Source: Patescibacteria group bacterium | GTDB lineage: Bacteria; Patescibacteriota; Patescibacteriia; Patescibacteriales; UBA12465 | Length of the DNA: 64,000 bases | Direction: 5' to 3' | Assembly: GCA_041671365.1 (NCBI GenBank) | Contig: JBAZBP010000001.1 | Location: 116,459 to 180,458, forward strand | Notes under the pieces: generated by a model | Databases searched by the model: none | The model's input: the letters and a program-made list of their open reading frames with translations, nothing else | Told to the model about the DNA's origin: nothing | Position numbers and translations under genes: made by a program | Part shown: piece after piece, positions 776 through 7,431 of the stretch | Layout: every line of letters starts with the position of its first letter | How positions within the stretch are numbered: position 1 is the stretch's first letter

Positions 776-1969
776 ATGGCTGAAGTTAAACCAGAAATTG
801 AGACATTTGCTAAAATAAAAGTTGTCGGCGTCGGCGGCGGCGGCGGCAGTGCGATTAATCGTATGGTCGCTAACGGCATCAAAGGCGTCGGTTTTGTGGC
901 TATTAATACGGATGTCCAAGCGCTTCATTATAATAAGGCTACGGAAAAAATTCATATCGGTAAAACGGTGACCAGAGGACTGGGCGCCGGTATGAATCCG
1001 GATTTAGGGAAGAGCGCGGCCGAAGAATCACAAAATGAAATTAGGGAAGTTTTAAAAGATTGTGATATGGTTTTTGTGACTTGTGGTTTGGGCGGCGGTA
1101 CCGGTTCGGGCGCTTCGCCAATCGTGGCGCAAATTGCTAAAGATTTAGGAGCTTTGACTGTTGCCGTTGTAACCAAACCTTTTTTATTTGAAGGAGGACA
1201 GCGAAAAAATATCGCTGATCGAGCCTTTTCTGAGCTAGCCGATAAGGTTGACACGATAATTACTATTTCTAATGACAAATTATTACAAGTTGTTGACAAA
1301 AGAACTTCATTATTGGATGCATTTAAAATTGCTGACGATGTTTTGCGCCAGGGTGTTCAGGGTATTGCCGAAATTATTACCGTACCCGGTATTATTAATG
1401 CTGATTTTGCCGATGTTAAGGCAGTAATGTCTAATGCCGGTTCGGCATTAATGGGTATCGGCCAGGCTAGTGGCGAAAACAAGGCCGTAGAAGCGGCCAA
1501 GGATGCAATTAACTCTAGTTTACTGGATATGTCTATTGACGGCGCTAGAGGCATCGTTTTTACGATTACCGGTGGTCCGGATTTGAGTATGACCGAAGTT
1601 AGCGAAGCGGCCAAAGTTATTACTTCAGCCGCCGATGAAGATGCTAAGATTATTTTTGGAGCCGTGGTCGATGAAAACATGAAAGATCAGATTAAAATTA
1701 CGGTAGTAGCCACAGGTTTCGATGGTCACGGTAAGAGTCAAAAGGGAGAAATGACCAAATCCTATACTCCAAATTCGTTTATTGTGGAAAAAGAAGCCGA
1801 GAAAGATCTCGCGCCCAGCAGTAATATTGACAAGAATAAAGGAAAATTTTCGGTTTTTAAGAATATTCCAGTAAAACCAGCCTTAGAAAAAAAGGCCGAA
1901 AAAGCTAATCACCAGGATGATGACGATGATTTAAGCGTTCCAGCGTTTATTAGGAAGAAGATGGGGTAA
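776..1969 (+). CDS. ftsZ: Cell division GTPase FtsZ
   Basis: Tubulin signature GGGTGSG (…TCGLGGGTGSGASPIVAQIAKD…). N-terminal VGVGGGGGSAINRM. Acidic C-terminal tail ending …DLSVPAFIRKKMG, a typical FtsA-binding peptide. Confidence 0.95.
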   Translation: MAEVKPEIETFAKIKVVGVGGGGGSAINRMVANGIKGVGFVAINTDVQALHYNKATEKIHIGKTVTRGLGAGMNPDLGKSAAEESQNEIREVLKDCDMVFVTCGLGGGTGSGASPIVAQIAKDLGALTVAVVTKPFLFEGGQRKNIADRAFSELADKVDTIITISNDKLLQVVDKRTSLLDAFKIADDVLRQGVQGIAEIITVPGIINADFADVKAVMSNAGSALMGIGQASGENKAVEAAKDAINSSLLDMSIDGARGIVFTITGGPDLSMTEVSEAAKVITSAADEDAKIIFGAVVDENMKDQIKITVVATGFDGHGKSQKGEMTKSYTPNSFIVEKEAEKDLAPSSNIDKNKGKFSVFKNIPVKPALEKKAEKANHQDDDDDLSVPAFIRKKMG

Positions 1970-2105: not shown

Positions 2106-2134
2106 TTGACCGCCAGTTAAAATCTTGCTAAAAT
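2106..2134 (+). promoter_or_regulatory. Sigma70-like promoter for the nrdR-nrdD-nrdG operon
   Basis: TTGACC, 17-nt spacer, TAAAAT. Confidence 0.5.
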
Positions 2135-2143
2135 ATAGAGACA

Positions 2144-2192
2144 ATACAATATTTAGTGGTCATAACTAGTGAATGGCCACAAAATATAGATT
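2144..2192 (+). promoter_or_regulatory. Candidate tandem NrdR boxes
   Basis: ATACAATATTTAGTGG (2144-2159) and CCACAAAATATAGATT (2177-2192) match the 16-bp NrdR-box palindrome acaCwAtATaTwGtgt at 13/16 and 12/16 positions. Centres are about 33 bp apart. Both lie between the -10 element and the nrdR start. Confidence 0.45.
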
Positions 2193-2195
2193 TAT

Positions 2196-2654
2196 ATGAA
2201 ATGTCCTATTTGTTATTTTCCTGATACCAAGGTGGTTGACTCTCGTGTGGCCATAGATGGCCTGTCGATTCGTCGTCGTCGTGAATGTTTAAAGTGTGGT
2301 TTTCGTTTTTCGACCTATGAAGAGATAGAATTGCTGGATTTGGTTATTGTTAAAAGGGATGGTCGTCGAGAATCTTATAATCGAGAAAAAATGGTTAATG
2401 GTTTAAAAAAATCTTGTGAAAAGCGGTCGATTACGGAAGATCGTTTTAAAAAATTAGTCCATTCTATCGAACGTGATTTGCAGCGTCTTAAAAATACGGA
2501 AATTACTTCGCGGCAAATCGGTCAAGCGGTAATGAAGAATTTAAAACGAGTCGATCCGGTCGCTTATATTCGCTATGCCTCGGTTTATGAATCCTTTAAA
2601 GATGCCCACGAATTTCGTAAAGAGTTAAATAAATTAATTAATGAAAAAAAGTAA
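2196..2654 (+). CDS. nrdR: Transcriptional repressor NrdR (zinc ribbon plus ATP-cone)
   Basis: MKCPICYFPDTKVVDSRVAIDGLSIRRRRECLKCGFRFSTYEE is the canonical NrdR N-terminal Zn ribbon. An ATP-cone follows. Confidence 0.9.
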   Translation: MKCPICYFPDTKVVDSRVAIDGLSIRRRRECLKCGFRFSTYEEIELLDLVIVKRDGRRESYNREKMVNGLKKSCEKRSITEDRFKKLVHSIERDLQRLKNTEITSRQIGQAVMKNLKRVDPVAYIRYASVYESFKDAHEFRKELNKLINEKK

Positions 2655-4716
2655 TATGACTGAAACTATCAGCAAACTAATTAAAAGGTCCGGTGAAATT
2701 AGTGATTTTGATCAGGATAAGATTGTTACGGCGATTTATAAGGCGGCCCTAGCAACGGGGGTAGATGACCATCACCAGGCTAAAAAATTAGCTAGTCAAG
2801 TAGTTATTCAGCTTAATAAGAAATTTTATAAAAGTAGTATACCGGCCGTAGAAGAGGTCCAGGATATAGTGGAAGAGGTATTGATTGAGAATAAGTTAAT
2901 TAAGATCGCTAAGGCTTATATTTTATATCGCGAGCAACATCGTCAATTACGTGATATTAACACTAAAATAATTGATGATAAATTGATGGAAGATTATTTG
3001 GGTAGAGCGGATTGGCGTTTGAAAGAAAATAGTAATATGAGTTTTTCTGTCCAGGGTTTAAATAATTATATTGCTTCGGCTATTTCCGCTCGTTATTGGT
3101 TAGATAAATTATATCCAGAAAATATTCGCGCCGCCCATATTAATGCTGATTTTCATATTCATGATTTAGGTTTACTCGCCCCTTACTGTTGTGGTTGGGA
3201 TTTAAAAGATTTATTGATTCGCGGTTTTCGGGGAGTGAATGAAAAAGTACAAAGTAATCCGCCTAAGCATTTTCGCAGCGCCCTCGGTCAGATAATTAAT
3301 TTTTTCTATACCATGCAGGGCGAAGCGGCCGGCGCTCAAGCTTTTGCTAATTTTGATACTTATCTGGCGCCATTTATCCGCTATGATAATTTAACCTATA
3401 AAGAAATTAAACAGGGTCTGCAAGAATTCATGTTTAATATTAATGTCCCGACTCGAGTTGGTTTTCAAACCCCGTTTACTAATGTTACTTTAGACGTTAC
3501 TCCCTCTCCTATGATTGGCGAAGAAAATGTTATTATCGGCGGAGAAATCAAATCGGAGAAATATAAAGATTTTCAAGCGGAAATGGATTTATTTAATACC
3601 GCTTTTGCCGAAGTGATGATTGCGGGTGATTCGACCGGGCGGGTTTTTGGCTTTCCTATACCGACTTATTGTATTGATAAAGATTTTGACTGGGACAGAG
3701 AATGCTTAAAGCCGGTTTGGGAAATGACCGCTAAATATGGCATCCCTTATTTTTCTAATTTTGTTAATTCCGACATGAAGCGCGATGATGCCCGATCAAT
3801 GTGTTGCCGCTTAAGGCTGGATAACCGAGAATTACGTAAACGTGGCGGCGGTTTGTTTGGCGCGAACCCACTGACCGGTTCTATTGGCGTCGTGACAGTT
3901 AACTTGCCTCGTATCGGCTATTTGTCCAAGAGCAAAGAAGAATTTAAAAAACGTTTGTTAGTTTTAATGGAATTAGCTAAAGAGAGTTTAGAAATTAAAC
4001 GTAAAATTTTGGAAAAATTTACCGATGACCACCTTTATCCTTATTCTATGTTCTATTTAGATAATATTAAGAAACGTTTTGGTTCTTATTGGCAAAATCA
4101 TTTTTTGACTATTGGCATCAACGGTATGAATGAAGCCGCTTTAAATTTAATGGGTAAAGACTTGTCTACTCCCGAAGGTCGCGCCTTTGCGGCCGAAATT
4201 TTAGATTTCATGCGCGAAAAACTTATGGATTTTCAAAATGAGACTAATAATCTGTATAATTTAGAGGCGACTCCGGCCGAAGGCACCACCTATCGTTTCG
4301 CTAAAAAAGATCAGCAGCTTTATCCGGGTATTATTTGCGCTAATACGGAGGCGGTAAAAACTCAAGGAGCTCCTCCTTATTATACTAATTCTTCACATTT
4401 GCATGTAAATTTTAGTGATGATATTTTCTCCGCTCTTGATTTGCAGGATGATTTACAAATTAAATATACCGGGGGAACGGTTTTGCACGGTTTCTTGGGA
4501 GAAAGACTGCCTAATGGTGATACCGCTAAGAAATTAGTGAAAAAAATTGTTGAAAATTATCGTTTACCATATTTTACGATTACCCCAACTTTCTCGATTT
4601 GTCCTAAGCATGGATATTTATCCGGCGAACATAAGTTTTGTCCGAAATGTGACGAGGAAATTGGTTATAAAGAAAATTTAGCAGAGCTTGAAACCGATAA
4701 AAATGTTAATAAATAA
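2641..4716 (+). CDS. nrdD: Anaerobic ribonucleoside-triphosphate reductase NrdD, large part: ATP-cone, catalytic barrel and Zn-ribbon, ending before the glycyl-radical segment
   Basis: N-terminal ATP-cone (LIKRSGEISDFDQDKIVTAIYKAA). NrdD core motifs are present. The C-terminus carries the Zn site …FSICPKHGYLSGEHKFCPKCDEE… and then stops. Followed by nrdG. Confidence 0.9.
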   Translation: MKKSNMTETISKLIKRSGEISDFDQDKIVTAIYKAALATGVDDHHQAKKLASQVVIQLNKKFYKSSIPAVEEVQDIVEEVLIENKLIKIAKAYILYREQHRQLRDINTKIIDDKLMEDYLGRADWRLKENSNMSFSVQGLNNYIASAISARYWLDKLYPENIRAAHINADFHIHDLGLLAPYCCGWDLKDLLIRGFRGVNEKVQSNPPKHFRSALGQIINFFYTMQGEAAGAQAFANFDTYLAPFIRYDNLTYKEIKQGLQEFMFNINVPTRVGFQTPFTNVTLDVTPSPMIGEENVIIGGEIKSEKYKDFQAEMDLFNTAFAEVMIAGDSTGRVFGFPIPTYCIDKDFDWDRECLKPVWEMTAKYGIPYFSNFVNSDMKRDDARSMCCRLRLDNRELRKRGGGLFGANPLTGSIGVVTVNLPRIGYLSKSKEEFKKRLLVLMELAKESLEIKRKILEKFTDDHLYPYSMFYLDNIKKRFGSYWQNHFLTIGINGMNEAALNLMGKDLSTPEGRAFAAEILDFMREKLMDFQNETNNLYNLEATPAEGTTYRFAKKDQQLYPGIICANTEAVKTQGAPPYYTNSSHLHVNFSDDIFSALDLQDDLQIKYTGGTVLHGFLGERLPNGDTAKKLVKKIVENYRLPYFTITPTFSICPKHGYLSGEHKFCPKCDEEIGYKENLAELETDKNVNK

Positions 4717-4761
4717 AATCGATTTGTAATTTAAATATTTTTAATTTATAATAATAAACAT

Positions 4762-4899
4762 ATGAGTCCGATCCAAACCCAAAGACAAGAATGTGTTGTT
4801 TATAGCCGGGTTGTTGGCTGGCTAACACCGACTAAAAACTGGAACCCGGGAAAAGCTTCTGAATATACTGATCGTAAAACCTATCAAGTTAATAATTAA
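4762..4899 (+). CDS. Free-standing NrdD glycyl-radical peptide (45 aa)
   Basis: MSPIQTQRQECVVYSRVVGWLTPTKNWNPGKASEYTDRKTYQVNN matches the NrdD C-terminal glycyl-radical consensus (…VYSRVxGYLxPVxxWNxGKxxExxxRxxY). It sits 45 nt after the nrdD stop, with in-frame stops between them, and ends 2 nt before nrdG. It is not in the ORF track because it is under 60 aa. Confidence 0.6.
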   Translation: MSPIQTQRQECVVYSRVVGWLTPTKNWNPGKASEYTDRKTYQVNN

Positions 4900-4901
4900 T
4901 T

Positions 4902-5639
4902 TTGTTTAATTTTATGATAATCGGTGGTTTGGAGAAATTAACTCTCCTCGACTACCCCGATCATCTAGCGGCGATTATCTTTACCCAAGGTTGTAATTTC
5001 CGTTGCCACTTTTGTTATAACCCCATGCTTGTCTGGCCCCGACAGGGAACGGACAAAAAAAATAAAAAAGAAAAAGGTTTTTCACCACCATCTGTTAATG
5101 ACCTTTTTCTTTTTTTACGAGAAAGATTTGGCCGTTTAGAGGGAGTAGTTATTACTGGCGGAGAGCCAACCCTGCACTCCGACCTGCCTTCTTTTATTCG
5201 AACCATAAAAGATATGGGTTATTTGGTGAAGTTAGATACCAATGGCACTAATCCGGCAATGTTGAAAAAATTAATTGGGGACAGGCTGATTGATTACATA
5301 GCCATGGATTTAAAGGCCCCTCTTTCTAAATATGAAACCGTAGTCGGGACATCTATTGACTGTAATAATATAAAGAAAAGTGTTAAAATTATAATGACGA
5401 GCGGTCTCCCTTATGAATTTCGGACGACCGTTGTCCCCGGTCTTTTAACTTTAACGGATTTTGCGTCAATGGGCCGAGTAATTAAAGGAGCGAAAAAATG
5501 GTATTTGCAATCATTTAAGTCCGACACCGATTTAGTCGATGTTAAATATCAAAAGCAAGCGGCTTATACTAGCCAAGAAATGCTTAGCTTTGCGGCCATT
5601 GGCAGAAAATATGTCGATCTCTGTGAGCTGCGCGCTTAA
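4902..5639 (+). CDS. nrdG: Anaerobic RNR activating enzyme NrdG (radical SAM)
   Basis: CNFRCHFCYN CxxxCxxC cluster and GGEPT motif. Lies immediately downstream of nrdD. TTG start (ATG alternative at 4914). Confidence 0.85.
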   Translation: MFNFMIIGGLEKLTLLDYPDHLAAIIFTQGCNFRCHFCYNPMLVWPRQGTDKKNKKEKGFSPPSVNDLFLFLRERFGRLEGVVITGGEPTLHSDLPSFIRTIKDMGYLVKLDTNGTNPAMLKKLIGDRLIDYIAMDLKAPLSKYETVVGTSIDCNNIKKSVKIIMTSGLPYEFRTTVVPGLLTLTDFASMGRVIKGAKKWYLQSFKSDTDLVDVKYQKQAAYTSQEMLSFAAIGRKYVDLCELRA

Positions 5640-5664: not shown

Positions 5665-7431
5665 ATGAAAGATATAGCGGTTTTTGCTCAGACAACTTAT
5701 CGTAACGAATTTAAAAAATTCGGCATTAAAGTCGACGATCGCCGTCGGCATATGTATTTGATTGGAAAAACCGGTATGGGTAAGTCGACAATTTTAGAAA
5801 ACATGATTGTCGATGACATTCGCGCCGGCAATGGCGTGGCCGTAGTTGATCCGCATGGCGATTTAGCGGAAAAAATTATTCGCTATATCCCCAGTAGCCG
5901 GATTAATGAGGTAATTTATTTTAATCCTTCGGATATTAATTACCCGATTGCTTTTAACGTGGTTGAACAAGTGGAACCGCATTTGCGCCATTTAGTCGCT
6001 TCCGGTTTAATTGGAGTTTTTCAAAAATTATGGGCTGATTCTTGGGGGCCACGTTTGGAATATATTTTACGTAATACTATTTTGGCAATTTTAGATTTTC
6101 CCGGCTCAACTCTTTTAGGCGTGGTGCGTATGCTATCCGATAAAAATTATCGCAAAAGAGTGGTCGCTAATATTAAAGATCCGGTGGTTAAAGCTTTTTG
6201 GGAGAAAGAGTTTTCCGGTTATGCCGATAAATTCGCTTCTGAGGCGGTTTCGCCGATTCAAAATAAAGTCGGGCAATTTCTTTCCAGCTCTTTAATGAGA
6301 AATGTCATCGGTCAGGTAAAATCTTCAATTGATATTCGTGATATTATGGATAATGGTAAAATTTTAATTATGAATTTATCCAAAGGACGTATCGGCGAAG
6401 ACAACTCCGCTCTCTTAGGAGCTATGATGATTACTAAGATCCAGTTGGCAGCGATGAGTCGGGTTGATGTTCCGGAAAAAAATCGTCGGGATTTTTATTT
6501 ATATATCGATGAATTCCAAAATTTTTCAACCGATAGTTTTGCCAATATTTTATCGGAAGCGCGAAAATATCGGTTGAATCTAATTTTAGCGCATCAGTAT
6601 ATTGAACAGCTCAGTGAAAAAGTTAGACCGGCGGTTTTTGGTAACGTTGGAACAATGATTGTTTTTCGAGTAGGAGCGATTGACGCCGAGGAATTAGTTA
6701 AAGAATTTACGCCAACTTTTACAGAAGAAGATTTGGTAAATTTACCAAAATATGAAATGTATTTAAAATTGATGATTGACGGAATTTCATCTTCGCCCTT
6801 TTCCGCTGCCGGTCTTCCGCCCCTGCGAGAAGACGAAGAAACCGGTAATGAACAAAAAGTAATTGATTATTCTCGTGAAAAGTATGCTTCGGATCGGGCA
6901 ACGGTAGAAGAAAAAATTATGAGTTGGCATGAAAATTATGGAGAAGACGAAATTAGGACTTCGGCTAAAAAAATTGTTTTACCGGCCAATCGAATTGATG
7001 ATTCGGCTATCGAAGCCAAAACTGTAGCCGCAGTTGCGTCAGTTCCGGTATCGCCGCCAATTTCATCATCTTTTTCGGCCGCTAATTCTAAACTTTCGGC
7101 AAAACCCGTATCTCCAAAAACTTTTTTAACCGCCGATAGTTCAACTTTTAGTCAAAAATCAGTAGTTAAAACCGGTTATTCGGCCATATGTGCAACTTGT
7201 GGGCAGAAAACGATGACTATTTTTAAACCGGACGGCATTCGACCGGTTTATTGCCGAGATTGTTTAAGCCGGAAAAAAGAAGAGAAACGCTTGGATCTGG
7301 AAGCCCGTCATTTAGCCAAAGAACAAGAAAAACAAAGCTTAACAACGACAACTACCACAACCACTACTACCGAAACAATGAAACCGGCGGCAGTGAATCC
7401 GGTTTTATCCCTGAATGATTTAAAAATATGA
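5665..7431 (+). CDS. TraD/VirD4/TraG-superfamily (type IV coupling-protein-like) P-loop ATPase with C-terminal zinc ribbon and poly-Thr linker
   Basis: Walker A HMYLIGKTGMGKST and Walker B-like FYLYIDEFQNF. C-terminal CATCGQKTMTIFKPDGIRPVYCRDC is a CxxC-x19-CxxC ribbon. A TTTTTTTTTTET tract follows. Confidence 0.5.
   Translation: MKDIAVFAQTTYRNEFKKFGIKVDDRRRHMYLIGKTGMGKSTILENMIVDDIRAGNGVAVVDPHGDLAEKIIRYIPSSRINEVIYFNPSDINYPIAFNVVEQVEPHLRHLVASGLIGVFQKLWADSWGPRLEYILRNTILAILDFPGSTLLGVVRMLSDKNYRKRVVANIKDPVVKAFWEKEFSGYADKFASEAVSPIQNKVGQFLSSSLMRNVIGQVKSSIDIRDIMDNGKILIMNLSKGRIGEDNSALLGAMMITKIQLAAMSRVDVPEKNRRDFYLYIDEFQNFSTDSFANILSEARKYRLNLILAHQYIEQLSEKVRPAVFGNVGTMIVFRVGAIDAEELVKEFTPTFTEEDLVNLPKYEMYLKLMIDGISSSPFSAAGLPPLREDEETGNEQKVIDYSREKYASDRATVEEKIMSWHENYGEDEIRTSAKKIVLPANRIDDSAIEAKTVAAVASVPVSPPISSSFSAANSKLSAKPVSPKTFLTADSSTFSQKSVVKTGYSAICATCGQKTMTIFKPDGIRPVYCRDCLSRKKEEKRLDLEARHLAKEQEKQSLTTTTTTTTTTETMKPAAVNPVLSLNDLKI

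Follow-up and report, generated by a model that had tools for sequence, protein, structure and literature searches.

A conserved division of the class III ribonucleotide reductase gene in Patescibacteria, with a putative stand-alone glycyl-radical peptide

Organization of the locus

A window of 64,000 nucleotides (nt) from a Patescibacteria group bacterium (assembly GCA_041671365.1, contig JBAZBP010000001.1, positions 116,459–180,458 of the forward strand), i.e., the whole stretch of DNA that was analysed, was found to carry the genes of an anaerobic, class III ribonucleotide reductase (RNR) in which the catalytic chain and its glycyl-radical segment lay in two separate open reading frames (ORFs). 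All genes of the locus were on the forward strand. The first, nrdR (2196–2654, 152 residues), encodes a transcriptional repressor of RNR genes and matched Zn_ribbon_NrdR (E = 1e-19) and ATP-cone (E = 2e-19); its 3' end shared 14 nt with the annotated start of the next gene, here called nrdD' (2641–4716, 691 residues). The product of nrdD' comprised an ATP-cone, the catalytic barrel and a zinc ribbon, without a glycyl-radical segment. The finger loop with the catalytic thiyl-radical cysteine site, M387-C388-C389-R390, was encoded at 3799–3810 and the zinc ribbon, C654-P-K-H657...C667-P-K-C670, at 4600–4650. A D-E-E-I-G-Y motif (residues 671–676; 4651–4668) came directly 3' of the last zinc cysteine and was followed by a variable tail of 15 residues, so that the protein, which an earlier note on this DNA had described as ending just after its zinc site, did so 21 residues past the ribbon (C-terminus ...FSICPKHGYLSGEHKFCPKCDEEIGYKENLAELETDKNVNK, stop codon TAA at 4714–4716).

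An AT-rich gap of 45 nt followed (4717–4761). The earlier note had given this length correctly and had supposed several further in-frame stops, of which only one was present (TAA, 4732–4734). The second ORF, of 45 codons (MSPIQTQRQECVVYSRVVGWLTPTKNWNPGKASEYTDRKTYQVNN; 4762–4899, ATG at 4762, stop at 4897–4899), contained the radical-site motif R16-V-V-G19-W20 (4807–4821, with the codon of Gly19 at 4816–4818), which was the only glycyl-radical motif within the 64-kb window. It was succeeded by nrdG (4914–5639), encoding the radical S-adenosylmethionine (SAM) activase, which scored 207 bits against the NrdG2 equivalog TIGR02495 (cut-off 131). The start of nrdG is most likely the ATG at 4914 (MIIGGLEK...), judging by the matching N-termini at two related loci (L086 and L087), rather than the TTG at 4902 given in the ORF list; the spacer between the small ORF and nrdG would then be approximately 14 nt and not the 2 nt previously noted.

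Homology of the two products

When compared with the Pfam family NRDD (PF13597), NrdD' matched positions 1–529 of 562 (E = 3e-182, 607.6 bits), in addition to its ATP-cone, while the 45-residue peptide matched positions 530–562 (E = 9e-8, 31.6 bits), both above the cut-off of 26.2 bits. The two matches abut, and the peptide is therefore exactly the segment missing from NrdD'. Similarly, NrdD' scored 514 bits against TIGR02487 (cut-off 326) and 1027 bits against NF006126 (cut-off 548); of the 684 positions in the latter, NrdD' covered 3–654 and the peptide 649–683. Both gene layout and profile matches thus bore out the suggestion that a separate glycyl-radical ORF sits between nrdD and nrdG. 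A scan of the peptide against Pfam and NCBIfam returned PF13597 and NrdD models only, and no match to the Gly_radical family of pyruvate formate-lyase (PFL). The peptide could be aligned with residues 616–645 of Thermotoga maritima NrdD. It had no dedicated family in Pfam, NCBIfam or PHROGs, and existing annotations called it 'ribonucleoside-triphosphate reductase' (JGI) or 'hypothetical protein' (NCBI).

The characters of a class III catalytic chain were found in NrdD' with respect to profile scores, finger-loop and barrel cysteines, zinc-ribbon pattern and an adjacent NrdG. The MCCR at 387–390, which belongs to a finger-loop motif class described in PMC9669993, and the barrel cysteines at 183–184 were invariant in alignments with fused homologues. 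The exception was the motif RVxG[YF], which class III enzymes carry on the same polypeptide; here its counterpart, RVVGW, stood on the separate ORF at 4762–4899. The best 120 homologues of NrdD' (84–100% identical) all ended after the zinc ribbon. Such strong conservation would not persist in an enzyme without function.

Conservation of the split

A scan of GTDB, with one genome per species, identified 220 species with a relative of the peptide, and 80 of these loci were examined. Together with three places at which a closely related peptide (P0042) was found and the window itself, these formed the pool for scoring, in which 81 loci showed the 3' end of nrdD. The split was present in all 81, so the search for the same arrangement in related genomes, which the earlier note had proposed, was answered without exception. 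The examined loci came mostly from genomes labelled Falkowbacteria or Patescibacteria. Many records with this locus (L008, L009, L012–L014 and others) were titled 'uncultured Gammaproteobacteria bacterium' (third-party annotation, TPA, assemblies), and others Bacillota or Planctomycetota; these titles are probably mislabelling.

Details of the junction varied widely across the 81 loci. The gap ranged from 18 to 193 nt, with a median of 69; the peptide ORF was in the frame of nrdD' in 40 cases and in the other two frames in 22 and 19; and nrdD' ended with TAA in 61 loci, TAG in 19 and TGA in one. In one locus (L086, on the P0186 contig, 0.5–1 kb), the peptide ORF overlapped the nrdD' stop out of frame. 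Synteny with nrdG was kept in related loci. The P0042 peptide was recorded in 110 sample blocks, and the places examined had the order nrdR-nrdD'(686 residues)-gap-peptide-nrdG. Gene order differed in L087/L088, from a genome of 2.6–3.1 Mb, where nrdD' (687 residues) was followed by nrdG and then by the peptide; the L087 peptide had 51 residues, the motif RVVGF and its own Shine-Dalgarno sequence upstream.

A search with the peptide itself produced 44 clusters, all of 34–72 residues and 61–86% identical to the peptide of the window. Twelve positions were invariant in 45 stand-alone peptides (Y14, R16, V17, V18, G19, W20, P23, N28, G30, K31, E34 and R38), and YSRVVGW was invariant among the close relatives. 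Among 83 distinct peptide-coding sequences, the mean proportion of non-synonymous differences (pN) was 0.086 and that of synonymous differences (pS) 0.78, and the entropy of the three codon positions was 0.28, 0.22 and 1.22. With synonymous sites saturated and pN low, these values indicated that the ORF is translated and under strong purifying selection. Its ATG and a Met-Ser-Pro start were conserved, and the position before the ATG was T in 79 of 79 loci. On these comparisons, the split gene is almost certainly genuine and maintained by selection, and the earlier proposal of a recently pseudogenized fusion is refuted by the conserved split and by purifying selection.

The tryptophan after the radical glycine had been pointed out as a departure from the usual motif. 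It was present as described, and was invariant in, and limited to, the Falkowbacteria-type clade and its phage copies; the residue appears to be derived from Tyr or Phe in one clade within a larger split group that keeps GY or GF. Cys11 of the peptide was considered as a ligand for zinc shared between the two chains, and this was dropped, the corresponding residue being Asp or Val in the NrdD of Prevotella copri and T. maritima.

The first zinc-ligand pair, C-x2-H, had likewise been noted as a deviation, and it is present; however, it was normal for this subfamily in both fused and split homologues. CPxH was invariant in the 81 split loci, and the pattern C-x2-H...C-x2-C occurred also in most of the fused homologues listed; the C-x2-H of NrdD' aligned with C-x2-C in P. 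copri NrdD, while the first pair of T. maritima NrdD was also Cys...His. The pattern thus reads as a trait of the subfamily, fused or split, that is unrelated to the split. The D-E-E-I-G-Y motif behaved differently: D-E-E-[IML]-G-[YF]-like sequences were found in 92 of 92 proteins from split loci and in 120 of 120 listed homologues, and D-E-E-[IML]-G-[YF] was absent from the 23 proteins of fused loci. By this distribution the motif appears to be a signature of split NrdD' proteins, and it may serve in docking the peptide or NrdG, or be a relic. MAFFT placed its I-G-Y onto the V-G-Y of the radical motif in fused NrdD; a derivation from a duplicated radical motif was considered and dropped, as three matching residues cannot establish it.

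Two further peculiarities of these proteins were observed. Pairs of cysteines terminated some NrdD' tails (ERCSTC, ERCPNC, NNPACC, NCGEC) and some peptide tails (SCC, CGCGRV, GGGCGSCGCDK), at loci L043, L050, L052, L066, L067, L072, L074, L078 and L080–L085, and were reminiscent of the C-termini that serve as redox shuttles in RNRs of classes I and II. Inteins (PF14890, PF14528) were found in split and fused NrdD homologues of approximately 1000–1120 residues (P0125, P0155, P0159, P0163, P0331, P0332, P0337 and P0437; L192, L222, L238 and L246).

Expression signals in the gap

Within the gap of the window, the sequence TTGTAA (4724–4729) was separated by 17 nt from TATAAT (4747–4752), the latter ending 9 nt before the ATG of the peptide. 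This bipartite motif recurred, at 11–12 of 12 positions, in 46 of 79 related loci, where it lay 8–79 nt before the ATG and, with one exception, kept a spacer of 17 nt; it was enriched 74-fold in the 200 nt before the ATG relative to the rest of the loci. No Shine-Dalgarno sequence preceded the peptide ATG in the window gap, and a sequence of this kind was seen before the peptide in only 5 of 79 loci. The consensus motifs suggest that the peptide, probably with nrdG, is under its own promoter inside the gap, and the distance of 9 nt between the -10 element and the ATG suggests a near-leaderless transcript in the window. A scan of the gap and its surroundings found no Rfam family, and therefore no intron; with a length of 18–193 nt, no ORF and no Rfam match, the gap did not resemble an interruption by a mobile element or self-splicing RNA.

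Distribution of split and fused forms

When 1.84 billion representative proteins were searched with a profile of the peptides, 4192 matched at E ≤ 1e-3, of which 380 reached E ≤ 1e-10. The best 150 of the 4192 were all 47–115 residues long, and 146 of these began with Met; their motifs were chiefly RVVGY (68), RIVGY (25), RVVGF (18) and RVVGW (14). Stand-alone peptides formed more than 150 distinct clusters at 50% identity. Among 80 metagenome loci retrieved with a GY/GF-type profile, 31 were split (nrdD'-peptide-nrdG), 25 were fused and 16 were stand-alone, i.e., had no nrdD in the locus, while eight ran off the end of the contig. With a fused relative (L197) as the query, 118–119 of the 120 proteins listed were fused. 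Split and fused forms are therefore both large families.

In fused members the radical glycine followed the last zinc cysteine by 12–14 residues (CPxC-3 to 6 residues-EVYSRVVGY). Three fused loci (L195 and L238/L242) had a longer linker, of approximately 25 residues, between zinc ribbon and glycine loop (CPxCD[RK]E...KRTKCEVYSR), and are possibly intermediates or re-fusions. A rough neighbour-joining tree of the barrel cores, without support values, placed the clade with tryptophan, to which the window belongs, inside a larger, almost entirely split clade with GY, several GY members of which shared a MSPIxTxRQxC leader; further split lineages were scattered among fused ones. The nesting and the scattered lineages suggest an old fission and further events besides.

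Copies on viral contigs

Copies of the peptide gene also occurred away from RNR genes. One peptide with YSRVVGW (P0044; 4001–4138 in L004 and 1452–1589 in L005) had no RNR neighbours, and the genes upstream encoded an integrase (phrog_1), a tail-fibre-like protein (phrog_3030), a Laminin_G_3 protein and three small holin-like membrane proteins. In IMG/VR, relatives were identified on 146 viral contigs, and 80 of these loci (L090–L169) were examined; they comprised approximately 54 short stand-alone ORFs, nine forms with a zinc ribbon, approximately seven with a C-terminal extension and four full-length fused nrdD genes. The glycine motifs among the 51 ORFs that the script classed as short were GY (30), GW (19) and GF (4). 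One locus (L096) was a split nrdD'-peptide-nrdG locus; beyond this and the four fused genes, no nrdD or nrdG was found within 5 kb, leaving approximately 70 stand-alone copies. Copies without nrdD or nrdG fit an action in trans, and the phage gene has the look of an auxiliary metabolic gene of very small size. Among GenBank phages (INPHARED), tblastn with the peptide as query found two weak hits only.

Other architectures were seen beside these. A second stand-alone form, of 84–145 residues, combined a CxxC...CxxC zinc ribbon with the glycine loop, i.e., the whole C-terminal domain of NrdD, and was found mostly on viral contigs (L117, L125, L127, L128, L130, L138, L139, L143, L164, L213 and L214; P0204, P0262 and P0279). 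In six viral loci (L151, L156 and L159–L162; 150–190 residues), the glycyl-radical segment was N-terminal and preceded an unrelated, cysteine-containing domain of approximately 140 residues.

Structural model and proposed mechanism

On the structure of T. maritima NrdD, the break mapped to a linker of approximately six residues, between the end of the zinc ribbon (609) and the start of the glycine loop (616). An AlphaFold2 (AF2) model was made of NrdD' and peptide joined end to end as an artificial single chain, using an alignment of 66 fused homologues. The mean predicted local distance difference test (pLDDT) score was 86.3 and the predicted template modelling (pTM) score 0.81. Peptide residues 10–39 (pLDDT 86–92) formed a beta-hairpin, with Gly19 at the turn, and then a helix, while the NrdD' tail (pLDDT 58–74) and the peptide leader (58–64) scored low. 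The top matches of the model in the PDB were all class III RNRs; a chimera modelled from a single sequence reached a pLDDT of 36. Given the artificial chain and the fused alignment, the model shows only that the two parts are compatible with the canonical fold, not that they bind in trans.

The locus is probably that of a naturally split and obligate two-chain class III RNR, with a detachable peptide made radical by NrdG. The ATP-cone, the zinc ribbon and a ten-stranded barrel bearing the Cys388/389 finger loop would come from NrdD', and the beta-hairpin with the radical glycine (Gly19 in RVVGW) from the 45-residue peptide. The peptide would be translated on its own and, in many relatives, also co-transcribed with nrdG from the promoter in the gap. 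NrdG, with SAM and its [4Fe-4S] cluster, would take a hydrogen from Gly19, and the radical peptide would dock non-covalently in the barrel of NrdD', at the place usually held by the fused domain, and there generate the thiyl radical of the finger loop, thereby starting nucleotide reduction; the remaining catalysis would proceed as in fused NrdD. Encoded separately, the peptide may be expressed independently and probably at a higher level, and it may be accessible to the activase without the domain flip-out that fused enzymes need. Docking, activation by NrdG, exchange of the peptide and physiological benefit are all inferred from the comparisons above. Since glycyl radicals are destroyed by oxygen, which cleaves the chain at the glycine, a peptide made separately would be replaceable at little cost, like a cartridge. 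We are somewhat more doubtful than confident that the peptide is indeed freely exchanged in this manner, being replaced after oxygen has cut it, and that phages bring their own copies to sustain deoxynucleotide (dNTP) synthesis in the host.

Alternative explanations

An ordinary fused nrdD, interrupted by recent pseudogenization or by an error of sequencing or assembly, would agree with the short gap of 45 nt and with a peptide ATG in the frame of nrdD'. Such an origin is nonetheless extremely improbable, given that the same split recurred in every scorable locus and in hundreds of independent assemblies, with gaps of variable length and the two ORFs in different frames in 41 of the 81; additionally, synonymous sites were saturated while the protein sequence was kept, and the best 120 homologues of NrdD' all ended at the same place. 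Readthrough, frameshifting, ribosome hopping, an intron or an intein might instead rejoin the ORFs during expression into a single-chain NrdD, and there are circumstances in favour of this, namely, the frame common to both ORFs in the window, as in 40 of the 81 loci, the inteins in some homologues and the group I intron in nrdD of phage T4. Two in-frame stops (4714 and 4732) would have to be passed in the window, however, and elsewhere all three frame relations and variable gap lengths occur; the gap contained no Rfam family and is too short for a mobile element; the peptide has a conserved ATG-Ser-Pro start and a promoter-like motif before it; and neither the order nrdD'-nrdG-peptide in L087 nor the phage copies without nrdD can be rejoined at all. 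Rejoining is therefore very improbable.

It is unlikely, if less remotely so, that the peptide plays only an accessory part, as a spare or a regulator, with a full-length NrdD or another RNR encoded elsewhere in the genome as the working enzyme and NrdD' in some other role. Spare parts resembling GrcA do coexist with a complete PFL (PMC13450708) and some stand-alone peptides lie far from any nrdD; but NrdD' retains the ATP-cone, Cys183–Cys184, the MCCR finger loop and the zinc ribbon and is 84–91% identical across the clade, the peptide belongs to an nrdR-nrdD'-peptide-nrdG operon, and genomes of approximately 0.5–1 Mb make a redundant RNR unlikely. A short peptide gene beside a radical-SAM gene is also the typical layout for a ribosomally synthesized and post-translationally modified peptide (RiPP), whose precursor would be modified by the neighbouring enzyme and have nothing to do with RNR. 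This can hardly be the case here, where the peptide matched the NrdD C-terminus residue for residue, including RVxG and WN.GK..E...R, the radical-SAM protein was an NrdG2 equivalog (207 bits against a cut-off of 131), and no leader-core architecture, protease or transporter was found. With NrdD' lacking a radical domain of its own, the peptide looks like an obligate radical subunit and, on the comparative evidence, probably acts as one in trans. Several points weigh against a two-chain enzyme of this kind: the joined AF2 model restates homology, the term obligate is drawn from the strong conservation of NrdD', and the viral status of the IMG/VR contigs was spot-checked only. To our knowledge, moreover, biochemistry offers no precedent, GrcA apart, for a free peptide of 45 residues that carries a stable radical.

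Comparison with known systems

Glycyl-radical enzymes are regarded as single chains with their own radical glycine, GrcA for PFL being the one known exception. GrcA is about 127 residues long, and the peptide of the window, at 45 residues, is much shorter. GrcA (YfiD) from Escherichia coli and phage T4 Y06I are likewise small stand-alone copies of the C-terminal segment of a glycyl-radical enzyme; both they and the NrdD-type peptide are presumably made radical by the activase of the parent enzyme and act in trans. Phage-encoded versions occur in both cases, as Y06I for PFL (PMC13450708) and as the IMG/VR peptides for NrdD. A review of June 2026 (PMC13450708) recognised spare-part proteins for formate lyases only and left other glycyl-radical enzymes open. 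The two systems differ in that GrcA is homologous to PFL, while the peptide matched NRDD profiles only, and in that a complete PFL has GrcA as its backup once oxygen has cleaved it, while NrdD' is without any radical domain; no complete parent enzyme was encoded beside the peptide, the neighbouring nrdD' lacking the radical segment in all 81 loci. The earlier likening to a detachable radical peptide such as GrcA/YfiD therefore holds with respect to the conserved split, selection, variable gene order and phage copies, but not in the sense of a spare for a complete enzyme.

Canonical NrdD (NF006126/PRK08270; 4COI from T. maritima, 8P23 from P. copri and 1H7A from phage T4) has the same ATP-cone, barrel and MCCR, and within the subfamily it shares the C-x2-H...C-x2-C ribbon, the sequence of the glycine loop and the NrdG2 activase with the split form. 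In the latter, the chain is interrupted by a stop codon, a gap that bears the promoter-like motif and a second start codon, and NrdD' has gained D-E-E-I-G-Y and a tail. A catalytic chain divided over two adjacent genes is also known from class II, where NrdJa and NrdJb of Pseudomonas aeruginosa must associate, according to the account in PMC9669993 of Crona et al. 2015. There the barrel is parted from a C-terminal domain of IscU-like and zinc-finger type, not from the element that bears the radical; NrdJb belongs to another RNR class and has the size of a full domain, against 45 residues for the peptide here. Interrupted RNR genes that yield active enzyme include the 'genes-in-pieces' NrdA of Aeromonas phage Aeh1 and the nrdD of phage T4 with its group I intron; those interruptions are a homing-endonuclease gene and a self-splicing intron, whereas a gap of 18–193 nt without ORF or Rfam hit is found here. 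In the searchable literature, which included few subscription journals, no split class III RNR or NrdD-type spare part was described.

If the peptide is indeed such an exchangeable cartridge, the enzyme would be the first obligate two-chain glycyl-radical enzyme, and the peptide the first autonomous glycyl-radical cofactor outside the PFL family, occurring in several lineages without cultivated members and in their viruses. A large group of ultra-small bacteria seems to rely wholly, for its essential anaerobic RNR, on a separate radical peptide of 45 residues, and related peptides are common in metagenomes and phage genomes. Confirmation would provide a natural, minimal substrate with which to study how activases install glycyl radicals and would show how the barrel accepts a radical loop in trans; it would also suggest a cheap strategy for repairing oxygen damage, and point to a new auxiliary gene, of very small size, with which phages could raise the nucleotide supply. 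Annotation pipelines label the truncated NrdD' as a normal enzyme and the peptides as 'hypothetical protein' or with the name of the full enzyme.

Other features of the window

The RNR genes belong to a co-directional row that begins in the window with ftsZ (776–1969, forward strand). Upstream of nrdR there was a promoter-like site (2106–2134, forward strand) and, between this and nrdR, a sequence resembling an NrdR box (ATACAATATTTAGTGG; 2144–2159, forward strand). A search of the window for NrdR boxes gave this single match, with three mismatches, where 0.93 would be expected by chance, and none in the gap between nrdD' and the peptide; the count is at chance level, and its position alone is suggestive. 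Downstream, a protein of 588 residues (5665–7431) contained a run of 11 threonines and a C-terminal CxxC...CxxC. Genes at the same position in three related loci (L001–L003) matched TrwB_AAD_bind, TraG-D_C and zf_Tbcl_2, and the protein is therefore probably a TraG/VirD4-like ATPase.

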